A stretch of DNA of 64,000 nucleotides. Source: Harriotta raleighana. Taxonomy: Eukaryota. Made by a program: the position numbers and the translations under genes. The DNA lies in contig JBNZDD010013665.1 of assembly GCA_050575255.1 (NCBI GenBank), forward strand, positions 1,496,135-1,560,134, in the 5' to 3' direction. The notes beneath the pieces are model-generated. The model did no database searches. It saw only the letters and a list, made by a program, of their open reading frames with translations, and was not told where the DNA came from. Of this stretch, positions 2,301 through 61,216 are shown in pieces (positions within the stretch are counted from its first letter, which is position 1; each line of letters opens with the position of its first letter).

Positions 2301-2423
2301 TGTACTTCAGTTTGTGATGATCTCCCCCTCTCTCTCTCTCTCTCTGTCTGTCCTTCAGGTCAGTGCTGCCTGTGCTGACGGCGATGAGTGACTGAGGTAG
2401 TGACTGGGGGAGGCTGTGTCAGG

Positions 2424-5400
2424 ATGTCTGTGGAGCCCAGGACTCCTGGCCTGGCTTTCGGCCAGGTGGTGATCGGCCCACCCGGCTCAGGGAAGACCAC
2501 CTACTGCTCGGGGATGCAGGAGTTTCTCTCCAAAATGGGCCGCAAGGTAGCTGTGGTGAACCTGGACCCAGCCAATGACAGAACCCCCTATCAGTGCAGT
2601 GTGGACATTGCTGAGCTGGTGACTCTGGACGATGTGATGGACAATCTGAAGTTGGGACCTAATGGGGGCCTGATTTATTGCATGGAATACTTGGAGGCAA
2701 ACTTTGACTGGCTGCAGGAGAAACTGGGGCAATACAGAGATCATTACTTCCTCTTTGATCTCCCTGGTCAGGTGGAGCTCTACACCCATCATTCCTCAGT
2801 CAAGAATATGGTCGCACAATTAACCAAGTGGAATTTCAGAGTGAGTTCATGTTCAGCTGCTAACAATTGGAGCAATAATTGAAGACTTTCTCTTTGTACC
2901 TCTCCAGTTAGTTACTGTCTCCTTCTCTGCCCCTTGCAACCAGTTTCTAGCCTCTATTTACCATTTTTCGTGGGGTCCTGTAGCTCAGTGGTTAGAGCAC
3001 TCGCCTTACAAGCGTTAAACCTGTGTTCAAATCCAGTCAGGTCAGGGTGAAACCTTGGACAAATTTCCTTTGATAATAATCGCTCCCCCCAAAAAACTAA
3101 GAAAAATTTGTCATTTCAATCCATGACTGTTTGTGGGACACAGCAGTGTGCAATTGGCTGCTGCGTTTCGCCCTCAAATATATAGTCAATTCACTTTACA
3201 GTATATTCTGTGAAGCTCTTTTTGACATCTAGAAGACATGAAAAAGTGCTATATCAAGTGCAAGGATTATTATTATTTTTAAAATATTATATATGACCTT
3301 TTGTTTTTGTTCCAGCGTCTTGGGACGTCCTCCTGAAGTGAAAGACGCTATACAAGTGTAATTTTGGTGGTGTTGGATTTGTGGATTCTTGTAGAGTATT
3401 GGTTAGAGCACTCACCTCACAAGCGAGAGGACATGTGTAGAGTAAAGAAAAGTTGCTTAAAGTTTCCTTTACACTTCTCTGTTTCCCAGCAGTAAGTAGG
3501 AATCCAGTTGTTGGCAGATTGGTTTTTGGAGGTACAGTAAAACCTTGTTTTTCTGGTACTCAACCAAACGACATACTCAACCAACCGGTTCTCCCAATAC
3601 AATTCACCATTTAGATTTATAGAATCATAGAATTTTACTGCACAAAAGGAGGCCATTCGGCCCATCTAGTCTGTGCTGGCAACTGGATTCTAGATTCAGC
3701 AACTGGATCTCATACCGTAGCCATCCAGGATACTCGCTATGCTCGCGGTATGCTCACTTTGCGCATGTAGGTCCATCGCTACCTTTATGTGAACTAGGGG
3801 GTTGCCTAGGGCTCTGGATCCACATATTAACAGCTGCAACGGATGGGGGGATAGTACCTGAAATCCCGCCTCCCCTCTTGCTCTCTGTACACTGATTGGC
3901 TAACAGTCCCCGCTAGTCACATCAACCCAGTGTCCCATTGGTCACCACTCACGTCAATCAGACGGGTGTTCACGCCCCACCAACACATTAGGTTGAATTC
4001 ACTTTTAACGGCCTGCCCTCAAGCATGCTCGCACCCTTTGCTATTGACAATCAATTAATAAGGTTAGTTCACTTTTTAAATAAAATAATAATTATACATA
4101 TACAGTAAAACCGTTGTTATCCGGCACCCTTCAATCAATGAATTAAAGTTACATTTATATAGCGCATTTCACATTGGGAAGACGCACCAAGGCCCTGGGA
4201 CCTGACCGGTGCCAATGAATCCAATATGCCGGATATTCGAGTGGCAAGTTGCCGAAAATCCAACAAAAAAAAACTTATTTTAAAACATATTAATAATACA
4301 CTAAATAATAACAGAATATTGTATCTCGAAGCATGATACAAATAAAACAACCATTATCGGGGATGCGGAGTGGGGGGAGACGAAGGAAGCTGTTCTTTAT
4401 CAAACACTGGAATGCTTTTTTACCTATCATTTTACCGAGTGTGATGGAATGCTTTATTGTTAAGTATCCATACAATATTCTGTTATTATTTAGTCTATTA
4501 TTAATATGGTATGTTTTAAAATTAATCGGCACAGATCAGGTCCTGAGGGTGCTGGATAACGAAGGATTTACTGTATTAATATCTCCCCAAAAAAGTGTTC
4601 ACTCAAACCCCAAGTGTTTGTGGGACTCTGCTACTCTCAATTTGCTGTTGTGTTTCAACCACAAAATACAGCCAATATACTTTTCAGTTATGTTCTGAAG
4701 CGCTTTGAGATGTCTGAACATCATGATAAAGAGCTATATCAAATGCAAGCATTAGTTTATTATTATCTCACTCTATAACCATCTCTATATGTTACTCTCC
4801 AGTTAGCTGCTGTTCACCTGGTTGACTCGCACTACTGTACTGATGCTTCCAAGTTCATCTCGATACTCTGCACATCACTGTCAACTATGCTGAATGTGGA
4901 GCTACCACACATCAATATCCTGTCCAAAATGGATCTTATTGAACAGTTTGGGAAGCTTGGTAAGCTTTTGAGACGCCCAATAAGTAAAGGAGAAGAGGTT
5001 GTGGAGAAGCAGTACTTTGTGTTAACTGCCATTATTCCTCCTGTTAAAACTGGAATGTGGGAAAGTGCAAACATGGATATTTTCCTCTGTTTGTATCACG
5101 GGGCATCCACAGAAACATTGAAGTGTTTTGATGCTCCAAAATTTAAGAGCAAAGTTCATTCTATTTTCTTTAGAATGTCCTTGTTGTTCATGTCTAAGCC
5201 ACATTTCCTCCTACCAGATTTGTCGTTGCTGTACTAAGAGCAGAGAAATGGCCTGTGAAGTGGGTAATATTTTGATTCTTATTTTTTAGCCTTTAATCTG
5301 GATTATTACACTGAGGTTCTGGACCTCTCCTACTTGTTGGATCACTTGGCCAGCGACCCTTTCTTCAAAAACTTCAAACGATTAAACAGCAAATTGGTGG

Positions 5401-8487: not shown

Positions 8488-11400
8488 ATGTCAAAGTCTT
8501 ATTGGCTTCAGAAGATGGGTGGACAGGACGAGGACACGGAGCACATTTGTAAACATAAAATTGCCATGTACTCGATGGACGATGGTGATTTCGAATTGCT
8601 AGACTCGGGCTTCCTGTCTATGGGAGAGGATTTCAACATCTCTCCACAGAATAGAGTTATCCACTGTTTGCAGCAACTGCAAGAGTTTCAGGGTAAGTCT
8701 CTGCTGAGTTCAACTTTTTGCTTGTAACTAACTAGGAGCAGGGTGTGGGGACTGGGTGACCAGGTTTGGTTTACAGTGAAATGCAAGGTTTATATAAAAT
8801 ATTTCTCATTGATTGTTTTTATTCAGAGAAGAAATGAAGTGAACGGTCGCTGCTTCCGTTTTGGATTCTGTCCAAAAGCCCCCAGATTTCCCAGCCACTT
8901 GCTAACCTGACACAACAGTCACCACACCACAGCTCTGACACTCAGGCTCTGACACTCTGACTGCGGGGTGGGTGCATTCCTCTTCTGTCTTATTAACACA
9001 AGGCAACCAATTCTGGTCACATCTTAAACCTCTGTAGAACAAACTACTGGGATCTTTCCTGACTCCAAAGATAAAAGTAAACACCTTATTAATTCATTAT
9101 GGGCTTTGACACGTCCAGAAGATGTGAGAAGCTTAATAACAAATACAAGGATTATTATTAAGTTCATCATTATCAGCAGCTGACACTAAAAGGTGTCAAC
9201 AGCATTAAAGCAATGTCATCAAGTGTCAGGAAGAGAGAGGTGTAAGTTTCAACTCCTGAGACCAGAGTACAGATAAAGTTAAACGAAGAATAGCAGAAGA
9301 AAGAGCTGCACAAAGCTCTCCCTCTCTCCCTACCTCCCTCCTTCGAGAAAACAACAACAATATAATTACACTTGCATAGCGCCTTTCACATTAGGAGGAT
9401 GTCCCAAGACTGGACAGTCATTGTTTCAGATCCGAGGGGTCAGAGACAGGGAGGGTGGACAGAAAGGGGGGAATTTTGGGTGGCCGGTGGGACCATTGAA
9501 CAGGGGTGTCTTGAGGGGAGACTTGAAGGAGTTCAGGAACTGAGGGATGGAGTTCCAGACATTGAGATCAGACTGGCTGAAAGCTCGCTCACCAATGGTG
9601 GTTCAGGGGATGTGGAGCAGGCAGGATCCTGCTGAGTGGAGGTGGCTGGCAGGATAGTAGGGGGTTAGGAGATCGCAGAGGTAGGGTGGGGCGAGGCTAT
9701 AGAGAGCTTTGAATGTGAGTACAAGGACCTTGAATTGGATCCTCTGGGTGATGGTGAGCCAATGGAGTTGGGCGAAGATGGGGGGGATGGTCACGAAGCT
9801 TGGAGCATGGGCCGCAGAGTTCTGAATTATCTGCAAACTATGGAGGGAGGAATTGGGAAGGCCGACAAGCAAGGCATTGGAGCCGGAATGTGATGAAGAC
9901 ATGAATGAGGGTTTCAGCAGCCTGGGGGTGAGGTAATGGCAGAGACAGGCAATATTGCAGAGGTGAGGGAAGGCAGAGTGAGTCATTGCTTGGATGCAGG
10001 GGAGGAAAGACATTTGAGAATCGAACAAGACACCTAGATTCCTGACTGGCTTGGTGAGCTGGAGGTTGATGCTGGTAGAGCCTGATGTGTGAAGGCTCTG
10101 GATCGAGCCAACCAGGAGGGCCTCGGTCTTGTTGACATTCAACTGTAGAAAGTTAGCTCACATCCATGACTTGATGTCTGACTGGCAGTCTGTCAGGACA
10201 GCAGTGGTCCTGGAGTCCAGGGTAGAGTTGGGTGTCATGCACATACATGTGGAAGTTAACCCCATGTCTGTGGATGATGTCACCAAGTGAGAGCAGGTAG
10301 ATGTTAAAATGTAGGGGGCCAAGGACAGTGTCCTGGGGGTTGCCACAGCTGACAGTGCGTGGGCTGGAAGAGAAGCCTTTGGTGGCAACAATGAGAAAGG
10401 TAACAGTTGAACCAAGCGAGGGCAGGTCCGCAGAGTTTGAGCTGGGAGGAGAGATGGTATAGGAGGATGGAGTGGTTGACAGTGTTGAAGGCAGCAGATA
10501 TGTTGAGGAGGACAAGGAGGCAGAGAGTGACCTGATCACAGATGTTTAGAATGTTATTAGAGACTTTTACCAGGGCTGTCTCTGTACTATGGGCAGCATA
10601 GAAGCCAGATTGCAGAGGATCGAGGAGGGAGTGGCGAGAGAGAAAGGAGCAAAGTTGGGAAGCAACGATTCATTCCAGGGCCTTGGAGAGGAATGGGAAG
10701 TTGGAAATGGGGGGTAGCTGCAGAGTAGGGGTGGGTCCAGTGAATGTTTTTTCAATATAGGAGGGATGGCAGCAGTTTTTAGAGGAGTGGGAACAGTCCA
10801 GTGGATAGGAAGAGGTTGATGACATCAGTTAGGAAGGGGGCTAGGAGATGGAGCTGGAAGATGAGGAGAGATAATAATAATAATAATAATAATAATCCTT
10901 GCATTTGATATAGCGCTTTTCACATCTTATCAACGTCCCAAAGCGCTTCACAGAATGTATTGTAAAGTGAATTGACTGTATATTTGTGGGAAGAACGCGG
11001 CAGCCAATTGCGCACAGCAGTGTCCCACAAACAGTCGTGGATTGAAATGACCAAATTTTATTATTGTGGTTTTTTGGAGGGATTATTATTAGGCAAGTGG
11101 AGTAAGGAAACTTGCCCAAGGTTTCGCCCTGATCTGCCTGGATTCGAACACAGGTCTCATGCTTGTAAGGCATGTAAGGCGAGTGCTCTAACCACTGAGC
11201 CACAGGAGCTCCAGGAGATGGGGATGTGGTCAAGGAAGCAGGTGGTGGGTTTCATTTTTTGGATGAGAGCAGAGAGGGTTGGGAGAGAGATAGAGTCAAA
11301 GGTGTGTAGTGGGGGTTGAGAGTGGGGTGGATCCTGGGGGAGAGGTTATGGGACGGTAGTGATGGACGGGGTAGAGGTGGCTGAACATATCCCCTCGATT

Positions 11401-14400
11401 TTTGATTCAAGGAAGTCCAGTATCTCCTTGCAGTTGAAGTTGAAGGATAGGATGGGTAAGATGTGGGAGGAAACGGTTTGTGGTGGAGAAGAGGAGCCTG
11501 GGGTTATCCTTGGCCTCTAAGATTAATTTGGAGTAATAGGAGGACTTGATGGGGGCAAGGGCGGAGCAATAGGCTTTAGTGTGATCCAGCCAAATCTGCC
11601 GATGGACGATTAGTTTGGATTTGGTCCAGCTGCGTTCGGCAGCTCACAATTGTGCCTTGAAGGTTCAGAGTCATTTAGATGACTCAAGGGCAGCAAAGAG
11701 GGAGGGGGGAGAATTTTTTTCTGTGGGCAATAGGTGATGGTAGAGGATTGAGTAGTGGGAAAGGGGAATAGAGTCGTTGAGGGAGATGGTGATATCTTGT
11801 CGGTTATGGTGATTTCAAAGCAGTGAGGGCAAGTCAAGCGGGTGGCCATGGATGTGGGTGGTGGAGTGGATGTGGAGGAATAGATTAACGGACGTGAGGA
11901 GGGAGGAGAAGTCACTGGAGCTAGAGCAGGAAGAGGTGAAGTGGAGGTTTAAGATAAGCAGTCTTTCAGAGCAAAGGAGGGGAAAACAGGAGGGGGGGGA
12001 GATGTCCGAGAGGAAGGTGGAGGAGGGCTTGGGGGGGATGATAGACAAGGAGAATTTTGAGGGGGAGACTGGAGGGTTGGTAGAGAGTAAGGTTTTCAAA
12101 GAAAGGGGAGGTTCCAGAGGAGTAAGGGGAAAGGCCAAGGATTGGGAGATTGGGAGTCAAACCACCATCACGACAGAGGGTTGGGCCGTGGGTTTTGGTG
12201 AAAGCCGTTAAGTGTGACCTCGATCAGAGGGAAAGTGTCACCTGGGGTAACCCAGGTTTCTGTCAAGGTGAGGATGTCGATGTTTTCATGGATGATGAGG
12301 TTGTGGATGGTGAGTGTCTTGTGAGACAGGGAGCGGACATTTTGCAGACCGATGTGGAGGAGACCGTTGGTGGTGGAGAATTGTGCAAGATGAGGAGGAG
12401 GGTTGACAGTGAGGGTGGGGATATGGATGAGGAAGGAGAGGTTGGCCACCAGGGAAAGGGACCGATGGATCTTGTGGCGAGAGTGGGGGATATGGCAATC
12501 AGGGTGGGTGCTGTCAGGCAGCCGGTGGATCATCCAAACACATCAGAATAAGAATAATAAATAATAATATTTGTTTTTGATATAGCCCTTCATCATGCCA
12601 TTGAGTCATTTCAAAGCAATTTGCAGAATATATTGTAAAGTGGATTGATTGTATTTTGTGGGCACAAACAGTCATGGATTGATTGATCCAATTTTTTTGG
12701 AAGAGGGAATATTCCTGGAAAGTAATAATCCCACTGTCTTCAATTGAATGGAGATAAATTCACAACAAATCTGTAGAAACATTACTTCCAGGGAGCGAGT
12801 AGTAAACCTATGGAACAGGCTCCTTAAGGAGGTGGTGGAAGCAGAAAGTGTTGATGTTTTCAAGAACAAATTAGATAGTCTTCTGTTAGGAAATAATCTT
12901 GGAAGACAATATATAGTTTGGGACAAGACATATCAAGTGATTGCCGGGATGAAGGAAGGCAAAATAGAGTGGATGGATCTTTTGCCAAGAAAATTCTTAT
13001 TTTCTTTTGAAACGTTAAGGTTTTTTTGTGTTTTATGTCTTTGTGGAGGTGACATTGGGCCATTACTACAGCAGCTGAAGCCGGAGCTGAAGTTGGGAGC
13101 CTCTCTCTGCACCAGTTCCGGGTGTGTAACAAACAAAGAGTGGTTGCAGGAGTTGGAAGATCTATGTACGCTTGGAGGCAAGATCCACATGGAGGTTTCA
13201 AAAGCTCTGATGCGTGTGAGCAATGAATATTTATCCAGCATTAGCCTGGAAAGTTTCCAGAACATTTATTCGGATTTACTGCAACAAGATCAAAATATAG
13301 GTACAATATTATTTTCACATCCTTGTGTGTGTGGGGCGGGGGGGGGGNGGGAGCGGACATTTTGCAGACCGATGTGGAGGAGACCGTTGGTGGTGGAGAA
13401 TTGTGCAAGATGAGGAGGAGGGTTGACAGTGAGGGTGGGGATATGGATGAGGAAGGAGAGGTTGGCCACCAGGGAAAGGGACCGATGGATCTTGTGGCGA
13501 GAGTGGGGGATATGGCAATCAGGGTGGGTGCTGTCAGGCAGCCGGTGGATCATCCAAACACATCAGAATAAGAATAATAAATAATAATATTTGTTTTTGA
13601 TATAGCCCTTCATCATGCCATTGAGTCATTTCAAAGCAATTTGCAGAATATATTGTAAAGTGGATTGATTGTATTTTGTGGGCACAAACAGTCATGGATT
13701 GATTGATCCAATTTTTTTGGAAGAGGGAATATTCCTGGAAAGTAATAATCCCACTGTCTTCAATTGAATGGAGATAAATTCACAACAAATCTGTAGAAAC
13801 ATTACTTCCAGGGAGCGAGTAGTAAACCTATGGAACAGGCTCCTTAAGGAGGTGGTGGAAGCAGAAAGTGTTGATGTTTTCAAGAACAAATTAGATAGTC
13901 TTCTGTTAGGAAATAATCTTGGAAGACAATATATAGTTTGGGACAAGACATATCAAGTGATTGCCGGGATGAAGGAAGGCAAAATAGAGTGGATGGATCT
14001 TTTGCCAAGAAAATTCTTATTTTCTTTTGAAACGTTAAGGTTTTTTTGTGTTTTATGTCTTTGTGGAGGTGACATTGGGCCATTACTACAGCAGCTGAAG
14101 CCGGAGCTGAAGTTGGGAGCCTCTCTCTGCACCAGTTCCGGGTGTGTAACAAACAAAGAGTGGTTGCAGGAGTTGGAAGATCTATGTACGCTTGGAGGCA
14201 AGATCCACATGGAGGTTTCAAAAGCTCTGATGCGTGTGAGCAATGAATATTTATCCAGCATTAGCCTGGAAAGTTTCCAGAACATTTATTCGGATTTACT
14301 GCAACAAGATCAAAATATAGGTACAATATTATTTTCACATCCTTGTGTGTGTGGGGCGGGGGGGGGGTGAGAGTGAGGTGCGGGTGTCGTTGCAGGAGAG

Positions 14401-17400
14401 AGGCAGGCATGGACTCCATTTGGGATCTTAGATTAGGAATCGCCAATGCCAGCAAATCCCTAAGAGTATGATTGCACTAATGTTTCCTTTCCATCAGGTA
14501 AACTGTTACAGACATCTGTCGAAAGAGCTGGAAGTTTGGATGTCAATATGTTGGACCTGCATCTCTTTGCTTCCTTGATCGCTTGTTGCCCCAAATTCCC
14601 TGAAGGCATGAGGGATCTCGTGAAGCGCTGGATCACAGAGAAGAAAGGAGACTTTTACTGGGAGCTGTTTCAGATGCTACAGGAGGAATGGTTCTGCTCG
14701 ATTCCGGAGGACGAAGTGCAGTGGTGTAGACGGGAGCTGCTGCATGCACTCCTTGTGTCTCTGAAGCGACCTCACCAGAGATACCTAACCTTTCATCATC
14801 TCCATGGACATGAAATCTTCCTGCCCGTAACTCTGGGTAACTCCACGCTCGTCTTCTCAATGCGCTTCAAGCTTTTCGCTGGCCAGTGATTTAACTTGTT
14901 TCATTCTCTTTAGGCTTCAGATGGGCCAAGACGGTTAATAATGCTAACATGCTACTCCAAGAGCATGCCTTTATCACGGTGAGTTAACTTTCTCGCTCCA
15001 GGTGCTTCTGGAGGTGAATCCTTGTGTTTGATGTGGATTTGTTTTCTAACTATCTCCCGGTTTATCTGGAGAATTGTTGACCGTGAGGAATATGAGGAAC
15101 AGATTTCTTGGTTTGACATCTCGTCTGAAAGACAACACGTCTGACAATGCAGCATTCCCTTTTAATCCTTAAAGTGTCTGCTTGGACATGAGGTTAAGTC
15201 CTCAGACACCTTGAACCCACAACCTTCTTTGAAAGAACCATCCAACTCGTCCCACTCCCCAGTTCTTACCCCGTAGTCCTGCAAATGTTTTCTTATTAGG
15301 TCCCTATCCAATTCTCTTTGGAAACCTACAATCGAATCTGCTTCTACAACCCTTTGAAGGCAGTGCATTCCAGACCATAGAATCATTCAAGTGTGTCTTT
15401 CTGTGAAGAATGTGACAGGGAGGGGAGAGGTTTGAGATCCTAGCTCCTGCTCACTGCCAGACACCTAGAAACTCACAATATTTATTTATCTTTGCTTCTT
15501 CTGCAGGAGCGATACCATATGAAGTCATTTTCAAAGATGGCAGCTCAGAAGACAGACATGGTGATGTGGTATGGTCCTGTGGCAGCCAACGCCTTCCTCA
15601 CACTCTGCTCGGCCCGAGGCTTTCCACACATCAGCCGGCAGCTGAGGAGCAGCTATCCTGACACCATAGCTCTACACCAAACTGCGAGTGAGTGTGTGCA
15701 TTTTGCAAGTGTGTTCAACAGCAGCATTGATACAGCACCCATCACACCAGGAGAGTCCCATTGCGCTCAAGAATAACGGACTACAGAGCCGAGGGGCAGG
15801 GGAGAGGTGACCATCGTCACGGTCAAATAGCATAGTCTTCAGGCGCGATCTGAAGATAAGGAAGGAAGGGGCAAGGACAGAGGAAGAGTGTGCGAAAGTG
15901 CGACCACCGTGAGAGCAAGCGAGGATGAGAAAACGTGAGAAGTTGGTGTCAGAAAATGTGTAAGTGTGAGACAAGTGTAAGTGATTCACTGTAAACTATT
16001 TTTCACCTTTGTGTAGTGACTGTGCTGGATCCTGACTCAGACAACCTTCCCCACATCCCACGACACGCAAAGCACCCTCTGAAATCAATTCATCGGAATC
16101 ACGAAGGTTTCAAAACCTGTTCCCTCGCTGAGCCCTGGCTGTTCCGATTGTCAGGGGCTCTATCCAACGAGTGGACAACAGTGGCCAGAGACCTTGATTT
16201 CAGTGATCAAGACATTGAGGAGACAGCAAGGAATTCCTGGTACAACCATCAGCAACGAATGTTCCATCTTCTGAAGAGAATGATTGAGGTTCGCTGTGTG
16301 ACATTCACAGAGTTATGCCTCCTCCTGCTTTCCAAAGGCCAAGAATACAAGTGCTATCCACAGCTAAACCTGGTGGTGGGGGCAGCATTGGCTGTTGGTA
16401 TGTAATTCTATACATATATATATATATACAGTATTTTAATAATCATCCTTGCATTTGATATAGTGCCTCTGCACGTCTCCCAAGCCCTCAAAGGACTTCA
16501 CAGAATATACTGTAAATATACTGTACTGTACAGCAACCAGTTGCACACAGAGACATCCTATAAACAGTTGAGGATTGAGTGGCCACATTTTTCCAAGGGA
16601 TTATTACCCCCTGGAATAGCAATCCTCTAATAATACTTTTATTTGATTAAAACGTCTCTAACATTTAAATATGTCTGATAGTGCATGCCGTGTAATCGTT
16701 GTCAAGTATAGATACCGTGCATTTTGTAGACAAAAGTTGCAGTCAATTTGCACACAACCAACATCCCACAGATGATCAATCAATTTTTGGGGTGATTGTT
16801 GGTCAGGACACTCGCTAGTGTCTTCTTTCAGATGTGGTTTCAAACATGGGCATAATCCGAGTGATTGATGAGAAGCAAGGCTGTAAGCGGCAGCGTACGT
16901 CCAAGCAGCAAGACGGGTGAGTGATCTGGAGCTACCGGCTCAGTTACTGTTTATACAAACAGCGATTTGTAAATGTAGCAAAGCCTAGAATCAACTGAAA
17001 CTCTGTAGGATCCTGATCAGGATAAATGGACTGTACCATTTTACAAGAAACATTTTCACACAAACAGTAGTGGAAACCTAGGACTCCCTCCCTCCCCTAA
17101 ATAGCTGTGGATGCTGGAACTATTACAATTTTCAAGACTGGAAAATGTAGGTAATTGTGAGCAGGCGTGATCTAATAGAAAGACAAACCAGGCTTGAGGG
17201 GCTGAATTGCTATTTCTGTTCCCATGTTCCTAAACAGAAACAAGATGTCCAGTTGGAATAGGACAGCCAACTTGTCTTAACAACATTGGGAAAGTCTTTT
17301 ATAAAAAAGTATTCAGTATTTTTTAACAAAAAATAAAAGTATCTCCCTCCAATGTAGTTTGTGCTGGAGGACAGTTCCATGTGCATTAATCGTGTCAAAT

Positions 17401-20400
17401 GGGCAATGGCTTTGGTTCGTCGCTATGGTTGGGTAAGTGTGTGGCATTGTGTTTTTCAATGTGTTCCTGCTCTGATGATAGGCATCAACCAGTAGTCACA
17501 CTGGTCCATGGCAACCTTGGTCTCATTTGTGATTATTGTAACAAATCATTGAATGTTAGCGAGATAAAGGTGGAGGAGATGGATCATTTCTTGGGCCAGA
17601 TGTCACTGGCGGGACCAGCCTTTAGCCTAGAAACAGATGCTCCTGGGACATACATGCTGCTGTTTCTTCCCAAATACCCCTCATCTTCAGGTGAGCATCA
17701 CAGACACTGACCCTCAAGTTAAACCATTTAACGTAACATTTGTCTCCGTTTAATAAAAGTATCTGATAAAAGATGATGGAAGGAACTGGTTTGCTCTTAA
17801 TGCCAGCGTCTCATTTTGAAAGTGTGGTAGTAATTAAATGGTTTTATATATGTTTAACAAAGAGAATGTAATGTCAGATGTCACACTATTCCTCTGGTGG
17901 AGTCCTGTAGCTCAGTGGTTAGAGCACTCACCTGACAAGTGTGAGATCTGTGTTCTGAATCCAGGCAGGTCAAGGCGAAACATTGGGCAAGTTTCCTTAC
18001 TCCACACGCCTAATAATAATTACTCAAAAAAGCCACATTAATAAAATTGGTCATTTCAATCCACGACTGTATGTGGGACCCTGATGTGCCCAATCGGCTG
18101 CCGCATTTCGCTCACAATTATAGTCAATTCACTTTACAATATATTCTGTGAAGCGCTTTCAGACATTGATAAGATGTGAAAAAAGTGCCTAATCAAATTC
18201 AAGGATTATTATTATTATTGTGTATACTGCTAGAGTCTGCTACAGGGTGTCTGAGTGGCCAGAATGACTCCAATGTAGCGTTGGACATTCAGCCCCGATC
18301 CTGGGCTAACTTTGCTCCCGGATTTGTACATTTCTGAGTGTTCTCTCGTACATGTTGTAAACAAATGTTTCCAGCATCATACAAGGATGGATGAGTTTAT
18401 AAATCTCTCATCTATAATACTGATAATAATCCTTGTATTGTATTTGATATAGCTGCTTTATCAGGTGGTTGACTTGTCTCAAAGCACTTCATAATTCACT
18501 ATTGTATTTTGCGGGCGAAACGCAGCAGCCAGTTGCGCCCAGCAGTGTCCCACATACAGCCATGGATTGGGTGACCACATCTGTATTGCTCTGAAAGTTT
18601 ATTACCCTCAGAAAGCAGTAAACAGAGGTGCATGATGTACAAAAACTTAAAATTGAGTGTTTTCCCCACCAGGGAATTGAACCCTAATCTTCTCACTTGT
18701 GAGGGGATTTCACTGCATTAACATTAGGGGAAGGCACACTGTAAGTTGGTCTTTTGACAAAGAGTGGGAAGGAATAGCCCACTGCAGCTAGAGAGACTTT
18801 GATCCAGGACTCTTTCCGTTGGGTGTTAATTTAAGGGCTTTACTCTTACAGGAAGCTGCATCACCCCTTCTACCATCAAAGACAATCTGGAGCTTTTCTT
18901 CCGGGAGGAATATCTGAATCTAAAAAATTCTTTATTGGAGAAGCTGCAGAAAGTGTTCGATAATGAAGAGTGGGAGGTACGGATTTCATTTTGATTAGTG
19001 CCCCCGTTCCAGCACTTGGTGCAGCTAAAATCAGTTACTGGACATGCATACCACATCTATTTGTGTAGGCTGGGCAAGAGTTTGAGGGTAAAAACTACCA
19101 ATCCAGTGTCTCCTGTTTTGATTGTGAAATTGAAATCAAATGGATTAGGATCTTTGGGACAGGAGGAGGCTATTCAGGTAACCAAGCCTTATTGAATCAC
19201 GTCAGAACTTTCAATACTATTTCTTTGGCTTCATCACCACTCTCAATATTCACCTGGCAAAGGACAACTCACTCCTGATGAAACTTATTGAATCACGTCA
19301 GAACTTTCAATACTATTTCTTTGGCTTCATCACCACTCTCAATATTCACCTGGCAAAGGACAACTCACTCCTGATGAAAGCCTCGCTGGTGACTGAGGTC
19401 TGCTCTGTGCCAGACTTTTTTTCCCTAATACTTTCAATATCCCATCAATTGTTGGAAACGACGATGTGAATCCAGAGTGTTAATGTCGTCCACAGCGTGT
19501 GTGCAGTTGCCTGGAGCTGAATGATACTAGTGCTGTTGTTGACCTAACTCTGTCCAAAGGAGGGCAAGCGTTGGAGTTGTTGTGGGATTTTGTGAAGGAG
19601 ACTGGAGCCCTGATCAGGGACTGGCCTCAACTGCATTGCAATGGACTTCACAGCAGCACAGGTATTTCACTCTCAACCGTAACTCACCTGAGAATTCATT
19701 CACCTGATATTTTCCCCACTTTTTGACTTCTGATTGACCGAGATGTTATTCCTCCCTCCCCAGTTCAAATCGCACACACTGTAGATGGGAATGTCGAGTT
19801 GTTCCTGCCGTTCGCTGACACTAAGTCTCATGTCTGGGTTCTTCTGGACTCCTGTTCCTTGGTCATGTTGGTCAAGCGTTTGACCAATTGGAATATATGT
19901 GAGGCTTACTGTCTGCTCTACAAGCCCGTGGGCCGGGATTACATTCAAAACAAAATGGTTATGTTTTTTTATCTGATCCGAAAAAAAGATGGCGTGATTG
20001 AGGTACCTCTATTCATCTTCTGCTACCTTTAGACTAGATTCTGTGTATAAACTAAAACCCTGGTTAACTGGACTGATGAGGAGGGGATGGTGGGAGGAGA
20101 TCTGGCCCCACGAGTCAGAATTTCTGGTATCAGCAATGTAATTGTTTGAATCCTATGAGGAGATAGATAATAATAATCCTTGCATTTGATATAGTTTTAG
20201 CACCTTGTTGAGAACATCTTGAAGCACTTCACAGAATATATGGAGTTCTGTAGCTCAGTATTTAAAGCATTCACCTTACAAGCGAGAGACCTGGATTTAA
20301 TTCCTGGCATGGCAAAACCTTAGGCAAGTTTCCTTACTCCACACGCCTAATAATAATCCCTTTTTAAAAAGATTGATAATTTCAATCCACAACTGTTTGT

Positions 20401-23400
20401 GTTGACAACAAAAGTCAATTCACTTTCCAGTATATTCTCTGAAGTGCATTGAGATATCTGGAGGACCTGAAAAGCGCTATCGCAAATGCCAGGACTATTA
20501 TTATTAATATTATTATATTGTAAAGTGGATTGACTGTATTTCAAGGGAGAAATCTAGCAGGCAACAACAAAATTAAACTTGTATAAACCAATTGCACACA
20601 ATATTGTCCCACAAACATTCATGGATAGAGTGACCAAATTATTTTTGGTGGGAGCGGGATTATTTATTACCTCTAGAAAGCAATCTGCCAATCGACTAAC
20701 TGGGTTCCAATGTATTGCTAGGTAAACAAATGTGTGTGTAGTATGGAAACTTGCCAAAAGTTTTGCCCTACTTGGGAATCAAACCTGGGTTCTCCCACTT
20801 GTTTTTTTTAAAGCCCCACCATCTTCCCTCCATCCAAGAATAAGATCTCTTCTGCTTGTGGGATTCAAACTGAATTAAAGTTGATTTCCCTGGCCACTGA
20901 AGGCCAGCGAGGGTGTGTGTTAGGACAGTGAGCCAGTGGGAGACCAGACATGTGCCTGTGGATGGATGTTTCTGTTTCTGGCCAGTCCCCCTGGGCAAGT
21001 TTATTACTCAAATTTGATAATTACAGCAATTTATTACACATTGAAGCACTGTGTATTGTATTCTTTACGGCATGGATTACTTGGATTCTGTTCCATCCAT
21101 CCCCAGAAATTGAACAAACAGCACAAAGGTCATGAGCAAGTGTTCAAAGAAAATGTCTGTGTGGCCAGAAACATGTTCTACAAACTTTGTGTTGATTCTC
21201 AGATAAAAACGAACTTCATCTCTATTATACCACAGGTAAATTATTGATGTTATGTACTGAATGGATGACACTGAGTCTGTACATTGCTGTTACATATTGA
21301 ATTCTCTCGATCTTTACTCCCTCACTCCCTCACCCCCAACCCCGAAAAAGGACAAAGGCTTTCTCACAGTCCAGGGTTCTCAGTGAAGATTGCGGAGGAA
21401 TAAACCTATCAACAGCAAATTGGATAGCCCCAATGGAGTCCCTTCAGGCAGGGATTTGAGTGAGACAAACTCACCAAACCACTATTAAGCGCTCTGGAGA
21501 GACTCTATCCTCCTTGGAGGATACTATTTAAGTGCAAGTTGTTGTTGTTTAATAAATTCTGTTACTAGGAACTGAAGTTCAATACGGAGATGATGTTTAC
21601 ACTGTACCTGAAGCAGTCACAGTTCACTGCCTGGCCCATTCAGCTCCAACTGGTTCAAAACAATGATGGTCAGTCTGTGTTCAACAAGGTCCTCACTGAG
21701 ACGATGCTTCAGCATGAAAAGAAAGGTATTCCTGTCTATCATCCTCTATTCAGTGCTCCCAACAATCCCATCCCTACTTTAGAACTATATTTGTATCTAT
21801 TAGCTGTCACTTATGGTTGGATTTCATTACGGAGGGGAGAAATATAACAGGAGTAGGCCACTCAGCCCCTCAGGCCTGTTCCGCCATTATATATGACATC
21901 ATGGCTAATCTGTGCCTCAACTCCAAAATTGAGAAATGAACAGGTACCATTCCAGGCCAATTGGCAGCTGCACAGAAGGATTTCTTCAGGTCAGTGTCTT
22001 TCAGAGACTGATTCAAAAGAGCAACAGACTAATTTCCCAAGCCCTTTTTATTTCCTGTAGATTATATCTTGGTCGAAGTCCACGGGGAGCAGCACTGTGT
22101 CCTGACAATCCATCGTGAAATCACTTATGAGCAATTTCGCACTGGACTGGATTTGACATTCCCAGAGAAAAACCTTGCTGTGTATTATAAAGAAAAAGGT
22201 GATCTCAGAACCTCCCACCTCTCTCACCCCCCGATCTCAAAGCCTCCCACACCATCCACCCCCTGATCTTGCAGCATCCCACCTCTCGATCTTGCAGCCT
22301 CCCACCCCTACCACCCCCAATTGTTGAGTGGCTCTCAGTGTACCAGTCACTGCATTTTTTGACCTACATGTTTCGTGCTGCTCATTTACAAATAAACATT
22401 CGTCATATTTTGGCAGGTCCTCCTGTGTGTATCAACCAGCAAAACAGTATTGACTACATCCTCGGGGAGATACCTCAGGGTAATATTGTTCTCAAGGCTG
22501 AAGGTGATGTGATTTCAGTATTGATCAACTCTTTTCTGTATAATGCGTTGATTACAAAGTTCTGAGACTCTCTTGTTTGTGACAAGATAATTGGGGTCTC
22601 GTTGTAGGCAACAGAATGCGTAGTCCAGTTCCTGAGCCATATGGGTCCACATTATTCCCGGGCACTACTGATGACCACAGTCAGCTTGGCTCATTGGCAG
22701 GATCTCAAAGGGCAAACCAGTCACTGACGGCAGGTAATCACACCTCTCAGCTCCTTCAGCCACATTGCCCCCAACCTCTGGAACTCCATCCCGGAGTCCC
22801 TCCACCTTGCACACTCCCTGGCCTTCTTCAAGTCTCGCCTCAAGACTCTCCTCTTTGATGAACCCATCGGCAACTCCTTATTCCCCACCTTCCCTCCCCT
22901 GCCCTGTCCTCAGCTCGTGTCTGAAGCAGTACCGAACATGAAAGGCGCTATACAAGTGTAATTTTGTTGTTGGTGGTAGTTGTTAACCCTGAAAGCCAAA
23001 TCCCTAATGGGTTCAAAGATATGATAACGTACTATATCAAATGCAATGATTATTATATTCTCATTTACCTACGAATCAGTCATTATGCTTGGCAATACAT
23101 ACTGTGAAGCATTTTGAGATATTTTCACACAAGTGCTGTGAAAATTTGGAGTCTTGTAGCTCAGTGGTTAGAGCACTCGCCTTGCAAGTGAAAGACGGTT
23201 CGATTCCAGGCAGAGTGAATCCTTGGCAAATTTCCTTTCTCGACACGCCTGATAATAATCCCTCGATAAAACACGATAAATAGTGGGTTATTTCAATCCA
23301 CGACTGTTTTTGGGACACTGATGTGTGCAATTAGCTGCCGTGTTTCTCCCACAAATATAGTCAATTCACTTTACAGCATATTCTGTGAAGCATTTTTAGA

Positions 23401-23900
23401 GATGTCTAGGAAGACGTGAAAAGTGCTATAGCAAATGCAAGGATTATTAAGAATTCAACTTTCCCACAACGAGTGAAGCCAGCCATAGCTATGGGCACAT
23501 TTTATAGTCGTTTGCTTCCACAGATGTGAGACAGCTGATTGCAAAGCCAGGCAGACACTTCCTGCAGAGAAACAAGGCAACCCTGATCTCCAGAATCACT
23601 GAGATCAGAAGTTTGATCGAAGAGCTGCAAGACCAGGAAATCCTCAATCCGGTAGAGTACGAGATGCTGATCAGTGTCAGCCCCCTGACACACCAAGTCC
23701 GAGAGACCCTGAACTGTGTGATTAAAAAAGGGAATCAGGCAATGGATATTTTTCACAGCCTGCTTGAGAAGCACCAGCCATACCTGCTTAAAGAAATAGA
23801 GAGCGCAGAGCTATCACATTCGAATTATGATCCAGGACAGAGTTCGAACCCACAGCTTTTACAATGTGGTGGACACAAAAGCAATGATATTATGTTGTAA
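8488..23900 (+). CDS. Uncharacterised multi-death-fold FIIND protein (PYD-like, DD, FIIND with CARD-like insert, PB1-like, CARD; CARD8/NLRP1-related), about 1061 aa. Exons: 8488-8692, 14069-14320 (duplicate 13049-13300), 14498-14826, 15507-15687, 16017-16397, 16832-16916, 17482-17690, 18852-18976, 19496-19661, 19764-20002, 21107-21235, 21569-21725, 22061-22198, 22417-22503, 22608-22733, 23524-23900
   Basis: All 15 introns are GT-AG and the phases chain without a stop (3186 nt total). The C-terminal CARD, FIIND motifs and death domain are recognisable by eye. AATAAA at 24055. Exon 1 and the exon 2 acceptor (GAG) are the least certain parts. Confidence 0.8.
9345..12545 (-). mobile_element. Degenerate long L2-clade LINE (APE endonuclease plus RT remnants)
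   Basis: Endonuclease N-terminus LQNVRSL...IDILTLTETW (12168-12533); RT motifs GNPQDTVLGPLHFNIY and HMYVHDTQLY (10153-10539); LNVNKTEALL, FKVLVLTFKAL; (TTG)n tail near 9350. Many frameshifts. Confidence 0.88.
10872..11212 (-). mobile_element. tRNA-derived SINE inserted into the L2 element
   Basis: Reverse-complement head GGAGCTCCTGTGGCTCAGTGGTTAGAGCACTCGCC, B box GTTCGAATCC, long (TTA)n tail at 10872-10896. Confidence 0.85.
12329..14368. repeat. Apparently identical 1020-bp tandem duplication (probable assembly artefact)
   Basis: 12329-13347 and 13349-14368 look identical, with a single N at the junction (13348) after a G run. Confidence 0.85.
15225..15385 (-). mobile_element. CR1 LINE 3' fragment
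   Basis: Minus-strand LWSGMHCLQRVVEADSIVGFQRELD resembles the CR1 ORF2 C-terminus; similar fragments at 12790-12890 and 34000-34140. Confidence 0.65.
16017..16397 (+). CDS. Death-domain-encoding exon of the novel gene
   Basis: WLFRLSGALSNEWTTVARDLDFSDQDIEETARNSWYNHQQRMFHLLKRMIEVRCVTFTELCLLL fits the death domain pattern (W..LAR.L.FS..DI...Q...LL..W....T...L...L); phase 1-1 exon. Confidence 0.8.
17482..21725 (+). CDS. FIIND (ZU5-UPA) region of the novel gene, interrupted by a CARD-like cassette
   Basis: MSLAGPAFSLETDAPGTYMLLFLPKY resembles NLRP1 [62 protein letters not shown] resembles [45 protein letters not shown] resembles FHLYLI, and ISIIPQ|ELKF resembles LEILPK|ELEL. Confidence 0.75.
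17899..18220 (+). mobile_element. tRNA-derived SINE
   Basis: GGAGTCCTGTAGCTCAGTGGTTAGAGCACTC head, family body, (TTA)n tail. Confidence 0.85.
19188..19379. repeat. 96-bp tandem duplication (2 copies)
   Basis: CTTATTGAATCACGTCAGAAC...CACTCCTGATGAAA occurs at 19188 and 19284. Confidence 0.85.
20242..20505 (+). mobile_element. tRNA-derived SINE (with flanking reverse-orientation SINE pieces to about 20800)
   Basis: GGAGTTCTGTAGCTCAGT head, family body and TTA tail. Confidence 0.75.
22061..22503 (+). CDS. PB1-like (beta-grasp) domain exons of the novel gene
   Basis: DYILVEVHGEQHCVLTIHREITYEQFRTGLDLTFPEKNLAVYYKEKGPPVCINQQNSIDYILGEIPQGNIVLKAE has PB1-like beta-beta-alpha-beta-beta-alpha-beta patterning. 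Confidence 0.55.
23148..23449 (+). mobile_element. tRNA-derived SINE
   Basis: GGAGTCTTGTAGCTCAGTGGTTAGAGCACTCGCC, GGTTCGATTCC B box, family tail. Confidence 0.85.
23524..23900 (+). CDS. Terminal exon encoding an ASC/NLRP1/CARD8-type CARD
   Basis: HFLQRNKATLISRITEIRSLIEELQDQEILNPVEYEMLISVSPLTHQVRETLNCVIKKGNQAMDIFHSLLEKHQPYLLKEIE matches the CARD consensus (HF..R...LI.R......L..L....L..E.Y...KG..A...F...L....PYL..EL). Confidence 0.9.
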
Positions 23901-29193: not shown

Positions 29194-32100
29194 TTAGAGA
29201 GCACATCCTACCAGGTTAGCTTCTGTTCCAGTTCTTTGCGATGCCGGGCTGCACTTGTGTCCAGGCTGTTGCTCAGTGTTCATCTCCAGGTAGCCTCGTC
29301 TGTCAATTAAACTGGAGAAACAGGACATGGCGAGTGAGTCACAGAATGACACAGCAGTACACTGCTCAATGTTACCAATTGTCATATATTCCGTGAATTG
29401 CTTTGAAGGGTCTTAAAGTTGTGATAAGGCACTGTATCAAATGCTAGGATTATTATTACTATATTGAACACAGACCCACAGAATGGGATTCTCTCGCACA
29501 GGTACTAACGTCAGTTGGCTGTGTGTTACCTGGGTGGCATGGGGCCACACAGCACGGCACAGCAGTTGGTGAGAGCACTGTTGTAACTGTATGGGTTACC
29601 AGTCTCCTCACAGCCTCGCTTTGTAGTCCAAGAGCCTTTAATCTGTCATAAAATAATAAAAGGGCATTAGACAAAAAGCTACAAACAAATAAAAATAATA
29701 GTACAGTAAAACCTTGTTTATCCGGTACCAAACCAACCGGCATACTCAACCAACTGGTGGTAGCTCCCAATTGTATCTCCCAATATGTACAAATTGTATT
29801 GGGAGATCCGGGACCCTCGCAGTTTGCTCATTTTGCACATGCGCGGTGCATCCGCACTTTACTAAAGTTACCCAAATCTAGAATGCTTTTATACTGATCA
29901 TTTTAGCGAGTGTACTGGAATGCTTTATTGGTAAGTATCCAAACAATATTCTTTAATTATTTAGTCTATTATTAATATGGTATGTTTTAAAACTAAGCTA
30001 TATTTTTTGGGTAGGATTTTCAGCAAAATAACGAATATCCAGCGTAATTGACTAACCGGCACCAGGCAGGTCACGAGGGTGCCAGATAACAAAGGCTTTA
30101 CTGTACTATAATTTGGTCACTCTACCCATGACAATTCGTGGGACGCTGCTGTGTACAATTGGCTGTCCCGAGTTTTGCCCACAAAAATTCAGTCAATTTA
30201 CTTTACAGTATATTCTGCAAAACACTTACAGGCATCTCAACGACATGATAACGCGCTTTATCAAATGAAATGATTATTATTGTAAACAAAATAGCAATAC
30301 AAAGGATTGTTTGTGTTGTGTACTGTCATCAGGTTGATACAGAATCTGTCGCTGCTCCCTTGAGCAGAGACAGAGTGATCAAACAGGGCAGCATGGCAGG
30401 TGAGTGCATAAATGGCACTGAGATACAGAGAGAATCCTAGTTCTACTATGGTGTTAAACATGTCTTTGCATTCAGCTGTACTTACATCTTCATTGGTCGT
30501 CAGATTGGAAGCCACAAGGTACGTGTGGAAGCCAGAGAGACCGAGAATGGACCAGACAGAGAAAAAGCAGATCAGCAACTCGAGGGCAGTGAGAGTGTCA
30601 AGGAAAGTGGCATATAATGTAATATAACTGCTCCACACATTGACACGTATGCATGCATATATACACGCGCACATACACACACAGATACACGCTGACCCAC
30701 ATACCCACATGCACTCACTGACAACCAAGTGTACACTCTCGCTGAGGAGTGTGGAAGGATATCTGGCTGGAGACTCCTGGAGGACATTTAACAACCCAAT
30801 TCTTTGAGATCCTGGAAGAAGAGTTAAAAAAATTGTGAAAGGTTAATAGCTGCTTCCATATTGTTTAACCACCATCCCCGCTACCCCCAATCCTTACCTC
30901 GCCTGACACATTCATCCACACTTATAACAAATTCCATTCATTATTGACCTGCTCACCTCTTCCTTTCTAGAGAATATAACCCTAATTAACTTTGTTCCAC
31001 ATAAACTGGTGAATTGTTGCTGGACACCCTCCGGGAATCTACCTAAAATCCAATATGTACACAACAGTTCACGAGGTGTGAGTGACAACTTCTGTATCTT
31101 ATGTCCTAGACCAGCTTCTTATAAAGTCCAGTATCCCATTCGCCTTAATAACTAACAAGTGAGAGTAAAGCACTTACTCAGTGTGAGGTGTGTTATCACA
31201 CACGCAAAGATGAAAGCAGTGAGGAATGAGAGCGAGAGTAGAAACATGTAGAAGAATCTGTAATTCCGTTTCCCCACACAGTTTCCAACCCAGGGGCAGT
31301 GGTGGTCAAATCGCTCTGAGGGGAAAATAACATTCAGATCAGACCAATAAAACTCACCAATAAAACATAGGTCAATTCAGTTTACAGTATATTCTGGAAG
31401 CACTTTGAGACCAGGTCTCGAAGACTTGATGAGGTGCTCTATCAAATGCAAGGATTATTATTCTGATTAAAACTCAAACCATGGGCCACATGACAGACAG
31501 AGCACATCCCTGCCTGGGCCAAGGCTGCTACTCACCCACACAGTTGTCACACAAGCTGCAGTGTGAAGTGCGTGGTGGCCGAAACATTTTGCAACTGAAA
31601 CAGTACTTGAGTTTGACGGGCTGCCCGTTGATCAGCACCTCTCTGGTGCGTGGTGGCCGGTAACTAGATCCCCCGGAGTTATCTGAAACAGAGGTTCAGT
31701 CAGTCGCAGGACATCGACAGTGAAGCTCACAGGCCCAGAGCAGGCCAGTTTTAAGTGAAATATTAAAAACCCCATCAGATTAAAAATATTTCTACCAACT
31801 TGTGGGTAAAATGATGCCCCTATGCCAGTTACCCCACAATTCTATATGGCTCAAAATGTGGATCATGGATCAGCAAACTTGTATTGAATACGCAATCCTT
31901 GTATTTAACTTGTATTTGGTACACTGCTGACACACACAGGGATACAATAAAGCACCTTGTTCTGCGCAAAGCTGCTCCTGGCTCTGGCACATATCCCACG
32001 GCTACTGAATCTCAGTGTGACGAAAGCTAAAACCGCTCTGCGCTGTCCGCTGCCCGGCCAGTTACCTATCTGTCTCTCCAGGTGAGCTGCCTCCTCGGGT

Positions 32101-46996: not shown

Positions 46997-61216
<14,220 letters not shown>

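Follow-up and report, generated by a model that had tools for sequence, protein, structure and literature searches.

Ser-Cys-Ser-Leu at the predicted self-cleavage position of a diverged FIIND in a Death-ZU5-UPA-PB1-CARD protein of cartilaginous fishes

Can a FIIND cleave itself if the residue before the cut is a cysteine instead of a phenylalanine? This question is raised by a 64,000-nucleotide stretch of the genome of the chimaera Harriotta raleighana (contig JBNZDD010013665.1, positions 1,496,135 to 1,560,134; hereafter the window), for which a variant of the Ser-Phe-Ser (SF-S) cleavage site of NLRP1 and CARD8 had been predicted, namely a Ser-Cys-Ser-Leu motif (SC-SL) downstream of a histidine. 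The rules of FIIND self-cleavage derive so far from three mammalian proteins. Our tentative answer, to which we assign a probability of roughly 0.45, is that it can, and that the motif marks the position at which a diverged FIIND cuts itself within a CARD8/NLRP1-like, degradation-triggered sensor of cartilaginous fishes. All coordinates given here are positions in the window and refer to the + strand unless stated otherwise.

The motif is part of a gene at 8515..23900, which consists of 17 coding exons with GT-AG junctions and encodes a protein of 1077 amino acids with no internal stop. Exon positions come from tblastn matches of shark and Callorhinchus homologues together with these junctions, and the start ATG was inferred. 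The protein shares 74.5% sequence identity with XP_007893193.1 of Callorhinchus milii and 42-47% with its shark orthologues. This similarity, the canonical junctions and the 1077 stop-free codons argue against a remnant gene that is decaying or not expressed, in which the motif would be meaningless. Such a remnant, which we consider very improbable, would be in line with the branch length of the gene (0.30 vs 0.07 for the Callorhinchus orthologue) and with the fact that the gene is known here from a sequence-based model alone.

The motif lies in exon 11, which starts at 19764 behind a polypyrimidine tract and AG and ends at 20002 with GT. A single forward frame contains CAC at 19775 (His665, 19775..19777), TCC at 19850 (Ser690), TGT at 19853 (Cys691), TCC at 19856 (Ser692) and TTG at 19859 (Leu693), so that the His of the QIAH sequence and the Ser, Cys and Ser codons of SC-SL are found exactly where the original prediction had placed them. 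The predicted scissile site spans 19850..19861, with the cut after Cys691. His665 is the equivalent of NLRP1 H1186 and CARD8 H270, and its distance of 27 codons to Ser692 equals that of the pairs H1186/S1213 of NLRP1 and H270/S297 of CARD8. In a profile of the family described below and teleost sequences, the latter included as a bridge to the mammalian FIINDs, both residues are in register with human NLRP1 (domain E 1.2e-4), CARD8 and rat NLRP1, and the alignment between them is free of gaps. A comparison of the family profile from the His to the UPA subdomain with a teleost FIIND profile using hhalign yielded a probability of 96.4% (E 1e-9). Judged from these alignments, the SC-SL motif is the FIIND cleavage position, and the earlier claim that the nucleophilic Ser and the His are retained is borne out. 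The relationship is distant: the Pfam FIIND score of exon 11 alone is 14.6-16.3 bits and that of the scanned family members 14.3-22.1 bits, and the gathering score of 25.8 is not reached. Direct sequence searches of the PDB with the exon, two shark proteins and a five-sequence FIIND profile gave no FIIND match; the link to the solved FIINDs emerged solely via a teleost FIIND.

Close relatives of the gene were found in cartilaginous fishes only in the searches run. A word-indexed search returned seven proteins among 5070 candidates, all of them from sharks, and among 1.84 billion representatives a profile matched six, five chondrichthyan proteins and one ordinary teleost FIIND protein (E 2.8e-4). 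Skates and rays, which may be hidden within clusters, are absent from the matches. After removal of isoforms and a fragment (P0001, P0010, P0012, P0015-P0019), and with P0007 and P0020 counted once as they represent one gene, the family comprises 11 genes from nine species. In the tree, subfamily A contains the window gene, one gene each of C. milii, Heterodontus and Stegostoma and two of Scyliorhinus, and subfamily B a second C. milii gene, two Cetorhinus genes and those of Carcharodon and Mustelus; subfamily B brings together long branches, and its grouping is less certain. Since each subfamily has chimaera and shark members, the duplication looks older than the chimaera-shark split. The homologues are annotated as uncharacterised, apart from one ASC-like label. 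The latter belongs to the second Callorhinchus gene (P0009), whose predicted form lacks the N-terminus and most of PB1 and may be a partial model. Some of the predicted isoforms of Scyliorhinus torazame (P0016-P0018) are longer by 28 residues directly ahead of the His strand, at the intron closing the ZU5 insert discussed below.

The cleavage site was compared between the 11 genes and 122 teleost FIIND domains. The latter come from 111 of 114 proteins, and the sample leans towards relatives of a single characiform protein. Ser690 and Ser692 are invariant in the family (11/11), against a background of 55 invariant columns among 424 (13%) and four among 28 Ser columns; in the zone from His to Ser, 8 of 40 columns are invariant. 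The original prediction had assumed a simple change from Phe to Cys at the residue preceding the cut (P1) and had taken SF-S as the reference state, and neither view holds. P1 is Cys in six genes, His in four, Leu in one and Phe in none, and as the Cys occurs in both subfamilies, SC-S is an old trait of the family rather than a private Phe-to-Cys change. SF-S is not the vertebrate norm either, because P1 is Leu in 111 of the 122 teleost domains (Phe in 10, Ser in one, Cys in none; P2 is Ser in two). The residue following the nucleophile (P2') is, as had been stated, Pro in NLRP1 and Leu in CARD8, but the proposed CARD8-like nature of the SL dipeptide was not upheld: P2' is Pro in nine family genes, Leu in one and Ile in one, the latter being the Callorhinchus orthologue. 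SL, here a late chimaera change from SP, says little about likeness to CARD8; SP prevails in the family, and in teleosts SL is more frequent than any other form (Leu 56, Ile 29 and Pro 7 of 122). The His described as conserved is indeed present at 19775; however, it is not invariant. It is kept in 8 of the 11 genes, among them all six with Cys at P1 and wherever P1 is Leu, and replaced by Gln in three. Two further residues of this zone are conserved, Glu672 (19796..19798, seven residues after the His; Glu in 11/11 family genes and 109/122 teleost domains) and a second His, His683 (19829..19831, 18 residues after the His; 11/11 and 116/122).

The exact register and spacing, the invariance of both Ser residues across the two subfamilies and the retention of the His in every Cys-bearing gene favour self-cleavage. 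Likewise, the common Pro after the Ser would correspond to an NLRP1-type neo-N-terminus, a smaller hydrophobic residue (Leu) is usual at P1 of teleost FIINDs, and the C-terminal CARD is nearest that of CARD8. The neo-N-terminus of NLRP1 enters the active site of DPP9 and that of CARD8 does not (bioRxiv 2021.01.13.426575); the SP members of the family might bind DPP9 in the NLRP1 manner. According to the self-cleavage reading, His665 would activate Ser692, which would attack the Cys691-Ser692 bond, and Cys691 would simply take the place of the mammalian Phe and the teleost Leu in the buried pocket, which would probably make the reaction less efficient.

A number of observations weigh against this reading. 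Mutagenesis of CARD8 showed loss of cleavage in S297A, a severe defect in F296H, a crucial role of H252 and H270 and a modulating one of E279 (PMC3210808), and NLRP1 F1212A is cleavage-deficient (PMC7483925); in the family, P1 is not Phe. The equivalent of CARD8 H252 is His in 120 of the 122 teleost domains and in none of the 11 family genes, which have Lys, Ser or Thr; in the window protein, Lys558 (17672-17674) takes this position in a register that rests on a weak alignment of the N-terminal ZU5 half. The Glu of the NLRP1 triad E1195-H1186-S1213 (PMC9700037), located nine residues after the His like E279 of CARD8, is Phe674 here, and the conserved Glu of the family occupies the teleost position, His+7, instead of +9. 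Directly behind the H252-equivalent position, a domain of 97 amino acids is inserted, and the predicted local distance difference test (pLDDT) score of ZU5 is below 50 in both AlphaFold models that were built. In three shark genes (P0002, P0003 and P0004), whose FIIND regions share about 80% identity, Gln replaces the catalytic His and P1 is His, and Ser-Pro is kept; if these genes are dead, conservation of the Ser is no evidence of cleavage. Moreover, the 11 family genes are related and not independent, and no paper showing cleavage of the Leu-type teleost sites was found, including in the accessible parts of PMC4932187 and PMC12436146. Judged by the mutagenesis data, the window protein retains both catalytic residues and is without three helpers, and the three shark orthologues look dead. 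Two options present themselves: the Ser is retained for structural reasons, or cleavage in the family proceeds by a relaxed or different chemistry. Among the teleost FIIND domains, 11 of 122 are without the catalytic His.

The first of these two options would make the protein an uncleaved, autoinhibited adaptor of one chain similar to the ZU5-UPA-death proteins UNC5B and ankyrin, which links partners of its Death, PB1 and CARD domains in NF-kB or cell-death signalling and retains Ser-x-Ser for structural reasons. We regard this as the main rival explanation, somewhat less probable than self-cleavage but quite conceivable. The P1 Phe and the H252 equivalent are lost in all 11 genes, the Glu at His+9 is lost and the catalytic His is missing in 3 of 11, and the lost positions are those whose mutation impairs CARD8 (PMC3210808); in addition, the protein carries extra interaction domains, of which the Death domain is best conserved, and a natural uncleaved allele is known in mouse, Nlrp1b allele 3 (PMC3334886). 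On the other hand, the nucleophile and mostly also the following Pro are kept in both subfamilies, and the His is kept where P1 is Cys or Leu. A degron, for which a candidate is described below, would destroy the whole protein if the chain were uncut, which is possible but explains less.

One form of the second option is that the entire family cleaves and that another His activates the Ser, either His683 or, in the Gln-bearing sharks, the His at P3 or P1, comparable to the HF-S sites of PIDD1 and Nup98; cleavage of PIDD1 at HF-S has been described (PMC3210808). In favour of this, His683 is present in all family genes and in nearly all teleost domains, and a His at P3 occurs in the three Gln-bearing genes and in no other member of the family. 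However, the combination of Gln and His is found in two lineages only, the position equivalent to His683 is His in human NLRP1 but Phe in rat NLRP1, and no active-site geometry was obtained from the models, so that we regard such re-wired chemistry as improbable. The pairing of Gln with the P3 His might reflect compensation or a coincidence of two lineages. Stegostoma keeps the catalytic His and has Arg at P3.

It has also been suggested that the change to Cys may add redox sensitivity, and Cys691 could be special either as a redox switch or as a nucleophile that cuts one residue earlier. Cys is found at this position in both subfamilies and in none of the teleost domains, and it can be the nucleophile in other autoproteolytic proteins (PMC3210808). 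The register, however, makes it the buried anchor residue and not the nucleophile: F968 is the buried anchor and H942 the catalytic His of rat NLRP1 (bioRxiv 2020.08.13.250241), and the P1 residue points into a hydrophobic pocket in both CARD8 and rat NLRP1 (PMC3210808; bioRxiv 2020.08.13.250241). Because P1 is buried in these proteins and five of the 11 relatives have His or Leu there, redox sensing by Cys691 finds no support, and we give little credence to any special role of this Cys.

From its N-terminus onwards, the protein comprises the DSGFLS motif, a helical region, a Death domain, a ZU5 that is interrupted by the insert, UPA, PB1 and CARD. Folds were modelled with AlphaFold for two orthologues, that of Callorhinchus and that of a catshark, rather than for the window protein itself. 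The UPA subdomain (19859..21718; the rest of exon 11 and exons 12 and 13) was compared with 48,161 chains using the catshark model, in which it is confidently folded and which was built with teleost fragments in the alignment. The five best matches are the five solved ZU5-UPA proteins, namely the rat NLRP1 FIIND (Z 13.2, root-mean-square deviation (rmsd) 3.2, 138 residues aligned), CARD8 (Z 11.7), human NLRP1 (Z 10.7), ankyrin B (Z 10.3) and UNC5B (Z 10.2), and the next match has a Z of 6.6; Foldseek gave an E value of 6e-6. PB1 (amino acids 836-910, 22061..22503), situated between UPA and CARD, is encoded by two phase 1-1 exons. Its C. milii model matches MEKK-type PB1 chains (Z 11.3, rmsd 2.0-2.3, 78-79 aligned), and the Pfam PB1 match in Stegostoma (E 0.0067) is below the cut-off. 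The C-terminal CARD (amino acids 962-1047, 23550..23807) is recognized by Pfam (E 1e-10), and the closest structure to its C. milii model is the CARD of CARD8 (Z 15.7, rmsd 1.1, 87 aligned).

The domain N-terminal to ZU5 is a Death domain (amino acids 377-465, 16130..16396), which is the most strongly conserved part of the whole chain, is encoded by one phase 1-1 exon and shares 56-62% identity with the sharks. Its Pfam match is below the cut-off (E 0.0034), and the C. milii model resembles the death domain of ankyrin G (Z 10.8, rmsd 2.5, 91 aligned). The putative N-terminal half of ZU5 (17483..17690) was placed by a colinear AGP...LxLP motif, and this match is weak (hhalign 14.7%; 1.2 bits with a hidden Markov model vs up to 2.7 for shuffled sequences). 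As the low pLDDT of ZU5 extends to the equivalents of His665 and Ser692, the models do not place the site in a structure. The insert comprises amino acids 564-660 (18852..19661), encoded by two exons flanked by phase-1 introns, and the distance from LPx to the His is 101-112 residues in the family vs about 16-18 in teleosts. It forms six helices in both models, with a pLDDT of around 80 in that of Callorhinchus. Against a profile of the C-terminal CARDs of the family, the insert scores 11.6 bits, which is reached by none of 5000 shuffles and compares with 3.8 bits for the best of 376 other sequence windows; 9.4 bits are retained when both chimaera CARDs are left out of the profile. Seven of the 11 family inserts score 3.6-11.6 bits against the family's own CARD profile, and four, from subfamily-B sharks, score below 0. 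Four other profiles, among them those of Pfam and of teleost CARDs, gave no match to the insert, hhalign comparisons of the insert and the N-terminal helical region with Death, CARD, PYD and PB1 profiles stayed at or below 7.5%, and protein atlas scores for the insert were 0.80 or less. No death-fold chain is among the top 50 matches to the catshark model (lowest Z 5.6), lists that are filled by UPA matches. The insert is possibly a degenerate CARD, as far as can be judged from profile scores. In a mixed alignment with full-length teleost proteins, the N-terminal halves of the teleost ZU5 domains fell into the insert, and this alignment was left out of the folding. The helical region at the N-terminus (amino acids 60-340, 14069..15687) shares 28-41% identity with shark relatives, has a low pLDDT and no significant Pfam match.

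How does this protein compare with known systems? It resembles human CARD8 in the C-terminal CARD behind ZU5-UPA, the absence of NACHT and LRR domains, the register of His and Ser, and SL; unlike CARD8, it has Cys at P1, no equivalents of H252 and E279, the ZU5 insert, a PB1 domain between UPA and CARD, and Death plus a helical N-terminus in place of the disordered region of CARD8. An orthologue of CARD8 was rejected on account of the Death and helical regions upstream and the PB1 domain. With human and rat NLRP1, the family shares the UPA fold, the His-to-Ser spacing and, in most members, SP, but it differs in the N-terminus, the ZU5 insert and PB1. Pfam detected neither NACHT nor LRR in any full-length family member scanned, and the N-terminal 340 amino acids are too short for both. 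The nearest His-to-Ser pattern is that of teleost FIIND-CARD fusions (Asn+5, Glu+7, Pro+11, His+18), which also have a non-Phe P1; in contrast to the family, these keep the H252 equivalent, have no insert, carry Leu at P1 and rarely Ser at P2, and no PB1 is found among their precomputed Pfam domains. In teleosts, FIIND-CARD is joined to varied N-terminal domains (GIMAP, MORC, GBP, TRIM, STAT, SP100, caspase and NACHT). PIDD1, UNC5B and ankyrins share the UPA fold and a Death domain in the same chain; their Death domain, however, follows UPA, whereas that of the window protein precedes ZU5 and the chain ends with PB1-CARD. PIDD1 itself was rejected as identity, as there is one SC-S site instead of HF-S sites with two ZU5 domains and the Death domain is N-terminal to ZU5.

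What might trigger such a sensor is suggested by the first coding exon, which encodes DSGFLS (amino acids 30-35, 8602..8619). This sequence of DSG, a hydrophobic residue, any residue and Ser matches the DSGxxS-type consensus of beta-TrCP phosphodegrons (PMC13097077, PMC4324316). DSG[FY]xS is found in all five subfamily-A genes with an N-terminus, where four of six motif columns are invariant vs none of 24 ungapped flanking columns, and in none of five subfamily-B genes, one of which is without its N-terminus. Teleost proteins do not have it (0/114), and the looser DSGxxS occurs in 29 of 114. The motif could also be a caspase site (xLD-SG, cut after the Asp), but this would leave the conserved aromatic residue and the second Ser unexplained. 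The conserved beta-TrCP-type motif suggests a kinase trigger, and a degron-like motif at the N-terminus fits a sensor whose function depends on cutting of the chain. Activation of NLRP1 proceeds through degradation of its N-terminal fragment (PMC7483925), and kinase-triggered activation of human NLRP1 has been reported (PMC9623368). In the self-cleavage reading, an N-terminal piece of 79 kDa with the degron, the helical region, Death and ZU5 with its insert would stay bound to a 44.5 kDa UPA-PB1-CARD piece; destruction of the former would free the latter, which would polymerise and recruit a caspase or ASC. It is tempting to speculate that the protein acts as a kinase-operated inflammasome, in which the phosphorylated, IkB-like DSG degron is recognized by SCF-beta-TrCP, the N-terminal fragment of the self-cleaved FIIND is degraded and UPA-PB1-CARD is released, with PB1 as an added module for polymerisation or partner binding and the CARD-like ZU5 domain as a brake; this full scheme is rather unlikely. 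In a search for NLRP1 and CARD8 together with TrCP, the accessible part of the paper checked treats beta-TrCP only as a viral target.

If the scheme were true, NF-kB-type signalling would feed straight into functional degradation, and Cys at P1 would be shown to support FIIND cleavage. Independent of this, the family provides a natural series on one scaffold that could reveal which residues cleavage needs and whether FIIND-CARD proteins work uncleaved: P1 varies between Cys, His and Leu, the base between His and Gln, and the residue after the cut between Pro, Leu and Ile. The architecture of Death, split ZU5, UPA, PB1 and CARD with a beta-TrCP-type motif was not found elsewhere in the searches run, and it would add a new wiring of a degradation-triggered sensor in the oldest jawed-vertebrate lineage. 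A literature search combining PB1 domain, CARD, ZU5 and UPA gave no match, and one on FIINDs in sharks or cartilaginous fishes revealed no such protein by title or start of the abstract, with most subscription papers outside the coverage of both. The protein is a heavily rebuilt relative of NLRP1 and CARD8 and as such of more interest than the SC-SL motif alone, the interest of which is modest.

The coding exons are located at 8515-8692, 14069-14320, 14498-14836, 14914-14978, 15507-15687 and 16017-16397 (exons 1-6), 16832-16916, 17482-17690, 18852-18976, 19496-19661, 19764-20002 and 21107-21235 (exons 7-12), and 21569-21725, 22061-22198, 22417-22503, 22608-22733 and 23524-23900 (exons 13-17), all of them predicted. 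The gene is preceded by a GPN-type GTPase gene (2388-5237) and followed, on the - strand, by a DHHC palmitoyltransferase exon (31155-31376), PIGV (37027-38916) and an ARID1-type gene (46997-48721). In human, SFN is located between GPN2 and ZDHHC18, where no FIIND gene is known, so that the FIIND gene of the window would occupy the place of SFN in mammals. A block of 1025 bases is present twice (12329-13353 and 13349-14373, 99.8% identical) across a single N at 13348 and repeats coding exon 2 without any change at 13049-13300; this duplication is most probably an artefact of the assembly. In the intron between the two insert exons, about 96 bases are duplicated in direct tandem (19188-19379). 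Furthermore, the window contains LINE fragments and many copies of one short interspersed repeat, for instance at 17897-18219, 20167-20518 and 23140-23449.

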